Assembly: GCF_003334405.1 (NCBI RefSeq)
Contig: NZ_QOWM01000003.1
Direction: 5' to 3' (one strand)
Source of the DNA: Escherichia coli
Lineage (GTDB): Bacteria; Pseudomonadota; Gammaproteobacteria; Enterobacterales; Enterobacteriaceae
Length of the DNA: 64,000 nt
This document shows positions 58,381-63,575 of the stretch, in pieces. Under the pieces are notes generated by a model, which was given only the letters and a program-made list of their open reading frames with translations, was not told the DNA's origin and did no database searches. Made by a program: the position numbers and the translations under genes. Position 1 is the first letter of the stretch. Each line of letters opens with the position of its first letter.

Positions 58381-60642
58381 TCAGGCAGGAATTTTGTCAA
58401 TCTTAGGAATGCGTGACCACACGCGGTGTGCTGCCATCAGCGTTAGCAGTTCATCCATAAAACTACCGTCAGCGCTGTCAGCTTCCACAATCCCTTCTTC
58501 ACCCTGGTCAGCGACCTTGATTGTTGCTTTAAACTTGCGCGCGTCACCCGCCAGCGCAATCGGTTTAAGGTGTTTGTAGGCTTCCATCAGGTAGTAGTTG
58601 GCATCGCCGTTGTCAGCGATATCCGCGATATTGCCGCAAGGGACAATGACCGCATCGACCGTCAGCGAAGGTGCACCGGCAAAGGTAGCGGCTATAGGCA
58701 ACACCGTACCGTCATCCGCAGTCACTTCACCCATTCGGGAGTAGAGCAGTTTGGCATGAACGCCTTTGGCCTTCAGCGCCTTGAGAATGGCCAGAAGGTC
58801 TGCCGATCTCACTTCATCATTAAGTAAAATCGCTACCACGCGACCTTTCACATCACCGTCAGGAATGGCGTACAAACTTAAGGATGGATCCTTTTTCAGA
58901 CCGTTGACGTCCGGAGGTGGGGTGATATTCAGCTGGTCGTCAGTCAGTTCGATACCGAGATTTTTCGCCACCGCCTGGGCCAGAGTGAGATCAATATGCG
59001 CCAGCTGGTCAACAACGCGCTCACGAATATACGGACGAACGACTTTGCTTAACTCAAAACTGAAACCATCGACAATATGGCGCTGCTCAAATGGCGTCTG
59101 ACTTAGCCAGAACAGACGCGGATGGGAATAATATTCGCCAAACGATGGGCTGCGCTCGCGAACTTTATTGCCTTCCACGCGCTCCTGGTATGATTCAAAA
59201 CCGCCGCGTTTCGGCCCCGGCGGTGTTTCGCGCGGCCAGTTATCGTTAATCGAGTTCGGTTCGTAATTCGCCGGGTTAGTGTCGATCCCCATGCGATGCA
59301 TGCCGTCACGCTGGAAATTATGGTAAGGGCAGGTCGGACGGTTAATCGGAATCTCATGGAAATTCGGCCCACCAAGACGACTGATTTGTGTATCGGTATA
59401 GGAGAACAAACGTCCCTGCAACAGCGGATCGTTGGTGAAGTCCAGTCCCGGCACGATATGCCCAGGATGGAAAGCCGCCTGTTCGTTTTCAGCAAAGAAG
59501 TTATCCGGGTTGCGATTGAGCACCATTTTGCCGACACGCTGAACGGGCACCAGTTCTTCCGGGATAAGTTTGGTTGGATCGAGAAGATCGAAGTCGAACT
59601 TGAATTCATCTTCTTCAGGAATCAACTGGAAGCCCAGTTCGTATTCCGGAAAATCGCCTGCTTCAATGGCTTCCCACAACTCGCGGCGGTGGAAGTCCGG
59701 GTCACGTCCGGTGAGTTTTTGTGCTTCATCCCAAACGAGTGAGGCTTTACCTGCCAGTGGTTTCCAGTGGAAACGTACAAACGTTGCCTTCCCTTCGGCA
59801 TTAATCAGGCGGAAGGTGTGAATACCGAAGCCTTCCATGGTGCGGTAACTGCGGGGGATGCCGCGATCCGACATCGCCCACATCACGTTGTGCAGAGTTT
59901 CAGGTTGCAGAGAAACATAATCCCAGAAAGTATCGTGGGCACTTTGCCCTTGTGGAATTGCCCAGTGCGGTTCTGGTTTTACCGCATGAACAAAATCGGG
60001 GAATTTATGCGCATCCTGGATAAAGAAGATTGGCGTGTTATTGCCAACGAGGTCAAAAATACCCTCTTCGGTATAGAACTTGGTGGCAAAGCCACGGATA
60101 TCACGCACGGTATCAGCAGAGCCAGCACCACCCTGAACGGTAGAGAAACGTACAAATACTGGGGTGATTTTGTTCGGATCTGAGAGGAAATCCGCTTTGG
60201 TAATATCGCTTAAGCTTTTATATGGCTGGAAATAACCGTGAGCGGCTGATCCGCGTGCATGAACAATACGTTCCGGAATGCGCTCATGGTCAAAGTGGGT
60301 GATTTTCTCGCGCAGAATAAAATCTTCCAGCAGCGTTGGACCACGGCTACCGGCACGCAGTGAGTTTTGATCGTCGGCGATGCGCACGCCCTGATTAGTG
60401 GTCAGCGCATAATTTTCACTGCCTTTGCGTACGTCTTCCAGAGAATTAAGTTTTTCGTTACGCGTATCAGGGGCTTTCAGGCTCCCTGGGGCGGTAGGTT
60501 GTGCACCTGGCGGTGTTGGTTCAGCCGCTGGACGATGAGAGCCGTCCTCAGGTGCCAGTGAGTCCATCCCCGGTTTCGCTTCGCTGGAATCGTGTAGTGG
60601 TGACTGGTGCTGATGTGGGTTCTTTTCGTTATGTTGCGACAT
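58381..60642 (-). CDS. katE: catalase HPII (large-subunit monofunctional catalase)
   Basis: 753-aa ORF with catalase core (FDRERIPERVVHARG-like) and C-terminal flavodoxin-like extension. Confidence 0.96.
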
Positions 60643-60845
60643 TGAACTCGTCTCCTTAATTTATTACTGAAAGGGCCGCTGTTTTGGTCAAAAAACTCTC
60701 TAACTATAGACCACCAGCCAGATCCCGCTTCGGAGACTATTCTGGAAACGGTGTTATGAAATACACGCAAAGCGGGACGTACAGGGGCTAAATCGGCTAA
60801 ACTACAGTTTTTCTGATTTTTAATATGCGTTTAGTGAAGCCAGTA

Positions 60846-61088
60846 ATGAAGAAACCGCTCCGCCAGCAAAACCGCCAGATTATTAGCTATGTCCCACGCA
60901 CGGAACCCGCGCCGCCAGAACATGCGATAAAGATGGATTCGTTTCGTGATGTCTGGATGCTGCGTGGCAAATATGTTGCGTTTGTACTGATGGGAGAGTC
61001 ATTACTGCGCTCACCGGCGTTTACTGTGCCTGAATCTGCCCAACGTTGGGCAAATCAGATCCGCCAGGAAGGGGAAGTGACTGAGTAA
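60846..61088 (+). CDS. cedA: cell division activator CedA
   Basis: ORF 60825..61088 (87 aa); 80-aa form from ATG 60846 (MKKPLRQQNRQ) chosen by recall; either start is possible. Confidence 0.8.
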   Translation: MKKPLRQQNRQIISYVPRTEPAPPEHAIKMDSFRDVWMLRGKYVAFVLMGESLLRSPAFTVPESAQRWANQIRQEGEVTE

Positions 61089-61376
61089 GGATTACATACC
61101 TCCCGGTTTTGCCGGGAGTTACATGACCTGAAATTCTGTATTTCGTTGCTACATTCATTCAAACCACCTGTAACAAAAAGCTGCCTTTGACGATCTATTG
61201 CTATAAATAAGTGATCTTTTTTCTTTAATTGTTTATTTATTTTAAAATGGTTAAGTTTTGCTAATCATGATGAGCTATTTTTGATAGTTCATCCTGTGGC
61301 GTCGCTCTTAAACTTATATTGTAAATGACTTAGATTTAAATGAGATAATAATTTTGTTAACAATATGAGGCGGGAG

Positions 61377-62180
61377 ATGTTTTCTACAAACTTAATACAG
61401 AGTAATTATGGTGATTTAAATATTAAAAGCCTGGCTTTCGACTCTTTTAAAGAAAGGCTGCAGTCTACTATGACAGCACTCACTTTCTTTATATCAACGG
61501 GTCAATGTGACTGCGATGAAATAGCAGAATCAAACTTTAATTATATGATTGCCTATATGTCTAACATTAACTATGATGCCTCAAAGCCAGGAGCGCCAGC
61601 ACTTAGTTTTGATACATATCTGCAGGACAATGTTAAATATAGAGTAATAATTAATAATCTTTATGGTAGTGAAATTCGGATAAGAGGTATAAATAAAGAT
61701 TTTATTGGAATGGATGTCACTTCTGTATTTCGCCCAGAAAAAATGACCAATTTGATCAGTATAAAAAACAGGTTGGTTATTCACTATTTAAGGACTATAT
61801 ACTATGAACAAAATTATATACATCCTGTCGGGAGCATTTTTGCTGCGATTCAAAAAAATGAGAGTCTCCTAAAGTTTCCTTCGATAATATCAATGCTTAA
61901 TATCAATCTTCTTTTTAATCCACTAAATCTTCCGGGAATGGGAAGTGGTGTGCTTGAAGATATTATGAGTATTCCAGATAGTTCACTTAGAAAACGTCTC
62001 GGGTATGAGGTTTTAAGCTTCTCGCTACAGGCACATTCATTGAGCCAGGAATGTATTGATAAGTTGGACATTTTTTTCGCTGACGATCTGTTTAAATATG
62101 AGTCAGTATGCATCGCCGCGATGGAACATTTAAAAAGTAAGGCAACGGCCCCTATACAAAACGGACCGTTGCCAGCATAA
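61377..62180 (+). CDS. ydjO: uncharacterized protein YdjO
   Basis: ORF 61365..62180 trimmed to ATG 61377 (267 aa); strongly AT-rich gene and upstream region. Confidence 0.75.
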   Translation: MFSTNLIQSNYGDLNIKSLAFDSFKERLQSTMTALTFFISTGQCDCDEIAESNFNYMIAYMSNINYDASKPGAPALSFDTYLQDNVKYRVIINNLYGSEIRIRGINKDFIGMDVTSVFRPEKMTNLISIKNRLVIHYLRTIYYEQNYIHPVGSIFAAIQKNESLLKFPSIISMLNINLLFNPLNLPGMGSGVLEDIMSIPDSSLRKRLGYEVLSFSLQAHSLSQECIDKLDIFFADDLFKYESVCIAAMEHLKSKATAPIQNGPLPA

Positions 62181-62183
62181 GAA

Positions 62184-63575
62184 TTAATGGTGTGCCAGTT
62201 CGGCGTCGTCTTCGCTATCCAGAATGGCTTTATCGGTTTGCTTCAGCCACTGGCTGGTCAGCGTGCCAGCTGTCATCGAGCCACTAACGTTTAACGCCGT
62301 ACGGCCCATGTCGATAAGCGGTTCAACGGAGATTAACAGCGCCACCAGGGTTACTGGCAGGCCCATCGCAGGCAGTACAATCAGTGCGGCGAAAGTTGCA
62401 CCACCACCGACACCGGCAACGCCTGCGGAACTAACGGTAACAATACCGACCAGCGTCGCAATCCACATCGGGTCCAGCGGGTTAATGCCAACCGTAGGCG
62501 CAACCATCACCGCCAGCATTGCCGGATACAAACCGGCGCAGCCGTTCTGACCAATGGTTGCACCGAAAGAGGCGGCGAAACTGGCGATGGATTCAGGAAC
62601 GCCCAGACGACGCGTTTGTGCTTCCACATTCAGTGGGATAGACGCAGCACTGGAACGGCTGGTAAAGGCAAACGTCAGCACAGGCCATACCTTACGGAAG
62701 TACTTCAGCGGACTCACGCCATTAATGCCCAGCAGAATGCCATGCACTGCAAACATAATCAGCAGACCGAGGTAGGACGCGACAACGAAACTTCCCAGTT
62801 TGATGATGTCTTGCAAGTTAGAACCTGCAACCACTTTGGTCATTAGAGCCAGAACGCCGTAAGGGGTCAACTGCATGACCAGGCGAACCAGTTTCATCAC
62901 CCAGCTTTGTAGGGTATCGATAGCGGCTAAGACGCGTTCACCTTTCGGCGCATCATCCTTCAGCAGTTTCAATGCAGCTACGCCGAGGAATGCGGCAAAA
63001 ATTACCACGCTGATAATTGACGTCGGATTGGCTCCGGTAAGATCGGCAAACGGGTTTTTCGGGATAAAGGACAAGACCAGCTGCGGAACGCTCAGATCAG
63101 AGACTTTACCAACATAGTTACTTTCAATGGCGTTCAGACGTGCAGTTTCTGCACCACCCTGAACCAGACCTTCAGCCGTCAAACCAAACAGGTTGGTGAC
63201 CAGCACACCGACCAGCGCCGCAATCAGCGTGGTAAACAAAAGCGTACCGATGGTCAGAAAACTGATTTTGCCTAACTGAGATGCGTTATGCAGACGGGCA
63301 ACCGCGCTCAGAATAGAGGCGAAGACTAACGGCATAACGATCATTTGCAGCAGTTGAACATAGCCGTTACCAACGATGTTAAACCACTGTACAGAATCTT
63401 TAAGTACCTGGCTGTCAGAACCATAAATGGTATGCAGGGCAAGGCCAAAAACCACACCCATCACCAGACCCACCAGCACTTTTTTCGCCAGACTCCACTG
63501 TTTATGGCGGGTCTGAGCCAGCGCAAACAGCAGTACAACGAACACCACGATGTTCGCAATTAATGGAAAGTTCAT
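62184..63575 (-). CDS. tcyP: L-cystine transporter TcyP (YdjN), dicarboxylate/amino acid:cation symporter family
   Basis: 463-aa ORF; multi-pass membrane protein with DAACS-family profile. Confidence 0.9.

Follow-up and report, generated by a model that had tools for sequence, protein, structure and literature searches.

Why is the DNA around ydjO so much richer in A and T than its neighbours on the Escherichia coli chromosome, and what is the gene that lies in it? The question arises in a stretch of 64,000 nucleotides from E. coli (contig NZ_QOWM01000003.1), hereafter called the window, which reads the K-12 reverse strand and differs from MG1655 (NC_000913.3) at the locus by one mismatch in 3992 bases. 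An earlier note on this DNA had described ydjO and its upstream spacer as an AT-rich orphan locus, typical of genes that are horizontally acquired and silenced by H-NS. Our analysis indicated that ydjO is probably a lineage-restricted, H-NS-bound accessory gene, which is carried on an AT-rich islet and is now decaying in many lineages. The islet and its flanks are arranged as follows.

60825-61088, + strand: cedA, the left flank of the ydjO islet
61089-61376: cedA-ydjO spacer, 288 bp
61377-62180, + strand: ydjO coding sequence (b1730), 267 amino acids
62184-63575, - strand: tcyP (ydjN), the convergent right flank

The composition of the locus was compared with that of the window. The region 61089-62180 had a GC content of 34.4% against 49.5% for the window (z = -3.33), and equally low values occurred in only 0.13% of the 1092-bp stretches in the window. 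The spacer (32.6% GC) and the ydjO coding sequence (35.1%) both contributed. The window-wide minimum (34.3% over 1092 bp) began at 61051, and in 100-bp steps the GC fraction fell from approximately 0.5 to 0.25-0.30 near 61150 and rose again at approximately 62100-62200. Among the 47 open reading frames (ORFs) of at least 150 amino acids, ydjO ranked last both in GC at third codon positions (GC3, 31.5%; z = -3.3) and in codon adaptation relative to the window. The region contained A/T-only runs of up to 17 nt, six copies of TTTAAA and five of ATAAT. Sliding GC and codon-usage calculations thus agreed with the earlier description of a spacer and gene far AT-richer than their neighbours, with long A/T runs and such motifs; the GC content was clearly below the window average.

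To place the islet in evolution, 54 cedA loci taken from species-representative genomes were compared. In other genera (Citrobacter, Salmonella, Enterobacter, Kluyvera, Leclercia, Atlantibacter and others; approximately 45-50 loci), cedA and tcyP were convergent neighbours separated mostly by 50-110 bp, with one hairpin between an A-run and a T-run. Judged from its sequence, this short spacer would be a bidirectional terminator. The same arrangement was observed in four Escherichia lineages other than E. coli (E. whittamii, Escherichia sp. E1V33 and two more), whose CedA was approximately 90% identical to that of K-12 and whose spacer read AAAAAACGCCTGTC-GGGAT-GACAGGCGTTTT; the empty-type spacer was also present in E. 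coli TO217 (L001). In a census of 5426 complete E. coli genomes, 4296 (79.2%) carried ydjO DNA and 1124 (20.7%) had an intact ancestral-type empty spacer. Since cedA and tcyP adjoin each other in other genera, in non-coli Escherichia and in 20.7% of E. coli, we concluded that the AT-rich ydjO segment is derived. Comparison of K-12 with the empty allele of TO217 gave its limits.

61071-62188: derived 'filled' segment of approximately 1.1 kb, from cedA codon 83 to the last tcyP codon

At the left junction, single-nucleotide differences occurred at ordinary density up to 61070, followed by 9 mismatches in 15 positions (61071-61085) and by essentially unrelated sequence beyond. At the right junction, the first mismatch was at 62188, in the last tcyP codon. 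The filled segment substitutes for an ancestral cedA end and terminator spacer of approximately 64 bp. As a consequence of this position, the last five cedA codons depended on the haplotype: the encoded end was QEGEVTE with ydjO and QENEVEE, the ancestral type, at the empty site. A 21-nt direct repeat, 81% identical between its copies, was also noticed here. One copy (61059-61079, ATCCGCCAGGAAGGGGAAGTG) reaches across the left junction, in cedA, and the second (61927-61947, ATCTTCCGGGAATGGGAAGTG) is within ydjO; the repeat could be due to chance or be a trace of junction formation.

The presence of ydjO at the same site in at least two Escherichia species would also fit an old Enterobacteriaceae gene that was repeatedly lost and whose AT-richness reflects a peculiarity of function or mutation, not a foreign origin. 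This history is hardly credible, as ydjO was missing from all of the approximately 45 non-Escherichia loci, and nearly all of these have a short spacer built in the same way. A single-hairpin spacer with A/T runs could not re-form after independent deletions, and no homologous protein was found in those genera.

Distribution outside E. coli was examined by several searches. A search of 5.8 billion proteins with YdjO returned 23 matches, every one of them from E. coli and with an identity of 74% or more. When a three-sequence profile was run exhaustively with HMMER against 1.84 billion cluster representatives, only E. coli ydjO fragments and two oddities were returned, and no homologue outside Escherichia was found among these representatives. 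In the E. albertii type strain NBRC 107761, the segment behind cedA at the same site has 32% GC, and an open frame in it, with 38% identity to YdjO, extends over at least 132 codons before the contig stops. When the complete E. albertii protein was sought, the 5.8-billion-protein search gave only a 79-amino-acid fragment; Foldseek detected an AlphaFold database entry from this species (A0ABD7EEI9, 257 amino acids) with 30% identity to YdjO. Escherichia sp. MOD1-EC7003 has the filled haplotype, from which 893 bp were deleted between direct repeats, and the last 32 ydjO codons are left.

61188-61199, + strand: left copy of the direct repeat, TGACGATCT[A/G]TT
62081-62092, + strand: right copy of the direct repeat, TGACGATCT[A/G]TT; the MOD1-EC7003 deletion keeps everything to its right

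Both haplotypes therefore occur in more than one Escherichia species: the filled one in E. coli, E. albertii and, as a remnant, MOD1-EC7003, and the empty one in E. coli, E. whittamii and others. ydjO is restricted to the genus Escherichia, beyond E. coli/Shigella. The term orphan is thus appropriate in that no homologue was found outside the genus; it does not hold for E. coli in the strict sense, given the divergent copy in E. albertii.

Several apparent relatives were rejected. P0038 (299 amino acids, E = 7e-33) resembled a distant homologue; its contig (Logan SRR33321306_56313), aligned to 60774-62815, had G at 588 of 595 A positions and A at 450 of 453 G positions, with C and T unchanged. 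It is an E. coli contig of K-12-like sequence with A and G interchanged, an artefact of base calling or of the data in run SRR33321306; other genes, too, could acquire spurious distant homologues in this way. P0065, an unannotated 1125-residue repeat protein, matched YdjO residues 161-193 (61857-61955, ESLLKFPSIISMLNINLLFNPLNLPGMGSGVLE) with E = 8e-5 summed over six repeats. This segment is weakly like the P0065 unit of approximately 40 residues (GFGSLLGFTNVNLxLDPKNLxGSGSGxL, at least six copies), and the match, inflated by the repeats, was treated as probably due to chance. The only 'plasmid' matches for YdjO by tblastn (PLSDB NZ_CP134663.1, NZ_CP141089.1 and NZ_OL790696.1) were chromosomes of 4.8-4.9 Mb misfiled as plasmids. 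Paralogy with YahL or YjfZ (DUF2686), orphans of similar length, was dismissed on BLASTP E values of 0.22 and 2.1.

We then asked whether ydjO is a real protein gene. A divergent allele from a genome labelled E. coli (L005, GCA_025283635.1; protein P0006) proved to be a mosaic: 61300-61900 was only 70-85% identical to K-12 with zero indels, and the flanks of this block were 93-100% identical. Within the block, the rate of synonymous substitution (dS) was 0.75 and its ratio to the non-synonymous rate (dN/dS, omega) was 0.23, with 50 synonymous and 64 non-synonymous changes (Fisher p = 3e-11). Between the same two genomes, omega was 0.27 for the whole of ydjO, 0.095 for cedA, 0.027 for tcyP and 0.008 for katE. 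Between K-12 and E. albertii, ydjO had dN = 0.55 and dS of approximately 1.5, and cedA had dN = 0.04 and dS = 0.69, a difference of approximately 13-fold in dN. YdjO thus evolves more than 10 times faster than CedA at the protein level, yet non-neutrally. As shown by dN/dS, ydjO is a real protein gene, at least historically, under weak purifying selection. Because dS in the divergent block equals that of cedA between species, introgression from another Escherichia lineage is suggested.

A second recombination tract is suggested near the locus, in katE. There, the identity between this genome and the window fell to 90-93% over approximately 700 bp (59400-60100), against 96-100% in the surroundings, and dS between K-12 and this genome was 0.21 for katE compared with 0.05 for cedA.

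58381-60642, - strand: katE

The protein was predicted to be soluble (maximum 19-residue hydropathy 1.1), with a mass of 30 kDa and a pI of 5.6. Searches of Pfam, NCBIfam and PADLOC gave no match, the best PHROGs match was non-significant (E = 0.37), and a profile search of Protein Data Bank (PDB) sequences gave nothing significant (best E = 1). AlphaFold2, run on a three-sequence alignment, returned a model of low confidence (predicted local distance difference test score, pLDDT, 49; predicted template modelling score, pTM, 0.39) with helices at residues 18-62, four strands at 74-117 and helices at 124-255. With this model, Foldseek against AFDB50 found only Escherichia YdjO entries at E < 0.1, and no fold was assignable. 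An Rfam search at the locus gave only a sub-threshold snoRNA match. These results agree with the earlier statement that the protein has no recognisable motif, and structure prediction and remote homology search, both proposed at that time, yielded neither a family nor a structural neighbour. Nor does the published literature assign a function to ydjO, as had been stated. A study of H2 production in the long-term evolution experiment proposed a role for ydjO from two single-nucleotide polymorphisms in two strains (PMC10997342); on that basis we did not accept it as functional evidence.

The missing homologues outside the genus and the poor model (pLDDT 49) could instead be read as signs that the ORF is incidental or arose de novo, and that the AT-rich DNA itself matters as an H-NS nucleation site or promoter island, a spacer or a terminator. 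Loss of the ORF is tolerated in many lineages, and the sole conserved, evidently functional piece is the tcyP terminator (described below), which survives in the MOD1-EC7003 deletion. This explanation is nevertheless very unlikely. The chance of an ORF of 267 codons at 35% GC is approximately 1e-9, and that of one of 132 codons approximately 4e-5. The frame stayed free of indels over 25% nucleotide divergence and is kept at 30-39% protein identity in E. albertii, and, per site, synonymous changes are four to five times as frequent as non-synonymous ones. Furthermore, the ancestral spacer has only approximately 50 bp, so 1.1 kb needed an outside source. As far as sequence comparison can tell, the incidental ORF and the old, repeatedly lost gene are contradicted by the codon-level data and the outgroup spacers.

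Published data were consulted for H-NS binding. The cedA-ydjO spacer is listed as 'promoter island' 1811053_320, ydjO(-)/cedA(-), by Panyukov and Ozoline (2013; PMC3661553 Table 1), where a promoter island is, by the definition of the Ozoline group, a region of at least 300 bp with unusually dense promoter-like sites. Conversion from U00096.2 coordinates placed it at approximately 61160-61480 in the window. The same table assigns the spacer to H-NS class 'K' from the chromatin immunoprecipitation-on-chip (ChIP-chip) data of Kahramanoglou (MG1655) and Oshima (W3110), and the associated gene was predicted to be foreign by two codon or composition methods (PMC3661553). In genomic SELEX (systematic evolution of ligands by exponential enrichment), the spacer carries an 'HNS' mark and an RpoD-holoenzyme site bound in vitro, with the predicted ydjO promoter ATGACT-16-AATAAT (Shimada et al. 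2014; PMC3946193 Table 2). Hence, both ChIP-chip and SELEX place H-NS on the spacer, as anticipated from its composition. Our own promoter scan found the same promoter sequence.

61130-61376: AT-rich part of the cedA-ydjO spacer, 25-30% GC, published H-NS-bound promoter island 1811053_320
61325-61352, + strand: sigma-70 promoter-like site ATGACT-16-AATAAT for ydjO, same sequence as in PMC3946193
61367-61370, + strand: plausible Shine-Dalgarno sequence GAGG, 6 nt 5' of the annotated ydjO ATG at 61377

The ydjO frame is also open upstream, to an ATG at 61365. Given the position of GAGG 6 nt before the ATG at 61377, the length of 288 bp given earlier for the spacer is correct, and the coordinates and names of cedA, the spacer and ydjO agreed with the ORF positions. 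The YdjO protein is 100% identical to MG1655 b1730.

The fate of the gene within E. coli was followed in the census genomes. Identity to K-12 among the ydjO-bearing genomes was at least 99% in 1689, 95-99% in 1089 and 90-95% in 1518. Strains with the empty site include CFT073, ATCC 25922, APEC O1:K1:H7 and APEC O2-211, which we take to be members of phylogroup B2. Among the genomes with ydjO DNA, inactivating changes recurred at three sites.

61731-61733, + strand: ydjO codon 119, CGC in K-12, CGA in the ~94% allele group, TGA in a large E. coli lineage
61852-61858, + strand: A7 homopolymer in codons 159-161, a recurrent frameshift site with A6, A8 and A9 alleles
62071-62077, + strand: T7 homopolymer, with a T6 frameshift in O157:H7-type genomes, annotated 'frameshifted'

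Of six loci examined from the ~94-95% allele group, five had CGA changed to TGA at codon 119 (R119*) and the sixth (94.9%) was intact. The R119* loci are annotated as pseudogenes in RefSeq, and some also have an expanded poly-A tract. The exact 61-mer with the R119* TGA was found in at least 932 genomes, and that with T6 in at least 305. At the A-tract, A8 (P0011 and L065), A6 (P0012) and A9 (L003 and L067) alleles were observed, and the truncated A8 product P0011 alone stands for 2273 database member sequences. Insertion sequences (IS1 and IS5) interrupt ydjO in some genomes, and an IS10 insertion in ydjO arose in a laboratory lineage (PMC10044804). Full-length YdjO is therefore possible in at most 56% of genomes, calculated as (5426 - 1124 - 6 - 932 - 305)/5426, and the true share is below this value. 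We infer that YdjO has become dispensable and that drift is eliminating the gene in many lineages. One record carrying the R119* allele, NZ_CP026085.1 (4.83 Mb), is labelled 'DH5alpha'; it is 96.7% identical to K-12 across cedA-ydjO-tcyP, and the label looks wrong.

The same pattern of presence and absence may be viewed as a sign of use. On this account, ydjO is actively maintained and conditionally useful, for instance as a type III substrate or as a factor against phages, competitors or hosts; presence/absence and allelic divergence are kept by balancing or frequency-dependent selection, and H-NS silencing is the 'off' state of an inducible gene. Filled and empty haplotypes each occur in more than one Escherichia species, dS in the N-terminal 170 codons reaches 0.75 between genomes labelled E. 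coli, against 0.05-0.2 in flanking genes, and purifying selection is still detectable (omega 0.2-0.37). The N-terminus of YdjO (MFSTNLIQSNYG...; MIPNISLQ... in E. albertii) is rich in Ser, Thr, Asn and Ile, as type III secretion signals are. In addition, the genomes that lack ydjO include known B2 strains, and phylogroup B2 also lacks the E. coli type III secretion system 2 (ETT2). We consider such maintenance unlikely, however. Even the variable block has an omega far below 1, which gives no hint of diversifying selection. Null alleles of at least four independent kinds are widespread, and one of them is found in O157:H7, whose type III system is active. YdjO has no PADLOC or PHROG family match, and the Foldseek matches to 'type III effector' entries had E > 2 on a low-confidence model (pLDDT 49). 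That haplotypes are shared is explained by inter-lineage recombination, with no need for selection, and nothing but the phyletic pattern speaks positively for the account. Its most specific form, in which YdjO is an Escherichia-specific protein kept polymorphic by frequency-dependent selection, perhaps a substrate of ETT2 or of the locus of enterocyte effacement (LEE) or a phage or competitor factor, with the H-NS-bound promoter as a switch and the A7 and T7 tracts as crude on/off sites, is less probable still.

Here, we return to ydjO as a presumably silenced, decaying accessory gene and propose the following course. The short bidirectional-terminator spacer would have given way to an AT-rich islet of approximately 1.1 kb, either in an Escherichia ancestor or in a relative since lost; entry of the islet by homologous recombination in the flanks, from a relative, is the simplest possibility. 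It may then have moved among Escherichia lineages, and been replaced in turn, by recombination within the conserved sequences on either side. Over the 25-30% GC spacer and the start of the gene, H-NS presumably forms a filament that would occlude the intrinsically competent sigma-70 promoter ATGACT-16-AATAAT, and ydjO would thus be nearly silent in ordinary growth. Judged by dN/dS, the ORF encoded a real, fast-evolving protein, predicted to be soluble, under weak purifying selection, which is now dispensable: one fifth of E. coli have the ancestral empty site, and many others have nonsense, homopolymer-frameshift, IS or deletion alleles. The 3' end of the islet, as a predicted tcyP terminator, would be the only part with an evident present-day role.

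Several observations weigh against this proposal. No target-site duplication, terminal repeat, integrase or tRNA site flanks the islet, and neither 50,697 phage records nor genuine plasmids contained a similar sequence. Because neither a donor nor a mobility signature was detected, it is the phyletic pattern and the composition that argue for horizontal acquisition. The promoter scan of 60600-62400, which used a simple -35/-10 consensus and not the PlatProm algorithm behind the published promoter islands, gave 5 sites compared with 4.9 +/- 2.2 in shuffled sequences, no excess on this measure. The H-NS high-affinity 10-mer motif TCGATAAATT, with up to two mismatches, occurred three times in ydjO and not in the spacer, and was not enriched, a result that says little either way. 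Derepression of ydjO in an hns mutant is not documented in the literature that mentions the gene, and silencing is deduced from the published H-NS binding; the promoter, classed as 'constitutive' in vitro, means that ydjO could be expressed. Finally, intact alleles persist in up to approximately half of the genomes with an omega of approximately 0.25, so that a function may still be selected in some lineages. The description as a horizontally acquired, H-NS-bound orphan is supported by the derived insertion, the published H-NS data and the lack of a homologue outside Escherichia. The original observation was correct and its interpretation largely right, although most of it had been published already: the conspicuous AT-rich locus is an ordinary, presumably silenced accessory gene on a textbook H-NS-bound xenogeneic islet that is already catalogued, and our main result is in this sense a clean-up. 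What is added here is the resolved evolutionary history, a correction of a 'conserved signature' claim and the overlap with the tcyP terminator.

Terminators at both ends of the islet were investigated by hairpin prediction.

62128-62173, - strand: intrinsic-terminator-like hairpin for tcyP, 11-bp stem followed by UUACUUUUUAAAU, inside ydjO codons ~251-266
61100-61118, + strand: hairpin CTCCCGG-TTTTG-CCGGGAG just 3' of cedA, -17.9 kcal/mol, z = -3.8

The tcyP-sense hairpin (62173-62141) had a predicted energy of -22.4 kcal/mol (z = -3.96), a stability that none of 200 shuffled sequences attained. It was the sole terminator-like match in the scan of 60600-62400 and was also found as inverted repeat I11. 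Where the site is empty, a U7 tract comes after the ancestral hairpin when read towards the tcyP 3' end of transcription; in the filled haplotype, only 3 bp separate the ydjO and tcyP stops, so that nothing of the shared ancestral terminator is left on that side. The hairpin behind cedA occupies the position of the ancestral bidirectional terminator with a different sequence. It has no U-tract on either strand and is thus not a canonical terminator, so that read-through from cedA into the islet may be possible. The MOD1-EC7003 remnant retains the embedded tcyP terminator, the presence of which would explain why that deletion spared exactly the 3' end of ydjO. In unstranded RNA sequencing of an extraintestinal pathogenic E. 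coli strain, ydjO was down-regulated alongside ydjN and the CysB regulon (PMC4145685 Table 1); we infer that this is probably explained by the embedded terminator. Because the predicted tcyP terminator lies within ydjO, unstranded expression data will show 'ydjO' tracking the CysB-regulated tcyP, and ydjO deletions could alter tcyP 3' end formation.

The islet was compared with known systems. Like the promoter islands or xenogeneically silenced islets of K-12, it is AT-rich, bound by H-NS and, in vitro, by RNA polymerase, and its gene is predicted to be foreign. It differs from them in being a single gene without mobility genes, uncalled by IslandViewer and GIST, where the simple consensus scan shows no promoter excess beyond composition. 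With the taxonomically restricted (ORFan) genes of enterobacteria, ydjO shares low GC3, poor codon adaptation, fast evolution, weak purifying selection and frequent loss or pseudogenisation. Unlike in those genes, the ancestral empty allele at ydjO still segregates and each junction can be located with single-base precision. The locus thus offers a well-resolved life cycle of an orphan gene, with empty, intact, introgressed mosaic, nonsense, frameshift, IS and deletion alleles in one genus.

YdjO has also been grouped with YahL and YjfZ as 'conserved signature proteins' of E. coli/Shigella, and ydjO was proposed as a quantitative PCR (qPCR) target for water monitoring (PMC11057252). Its restriction to a narrow clade was confirmed here at far larger database scale. 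In contrast to the signature claim, ydjO is absent from 20.7% of genomes and inactivated in at least a further 23%, and it is not exclusive to E. coli/Shigella, given the E. albertii copy. In that study, YdjO was detected least often of the assays (93%) and correlated most weakly with colony-forming units (PMC11057252). The primers of its assay map to 62019-62038 and 62098-62117 in the window. As the gene is missing in 20.7% of genomes, including extraintestinal pathogens of the CFT073/ATCC 25922 type, the assay must under-count them.

Two other stretches of the window stood out in composition. A sharp GC dip (37% in 29501-30000) occurs at the start of a 346-residue ORF on the + strand (29638-30678), possibly ynjI in view of its length, which has the second-lowest GC3 in the window (0.42). 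The only other stretch as AT-rich as the ydjO islet is cdgI/yeaI (b1785) with its upstream region (2649-4930; cdgI on the - strand, 2649-4124), which has 33-37% GC and a minimum of 34.7% over 1092 bp. yeaI is likewise catalogued as an H-NS-bound promoter island (PMC3661553).

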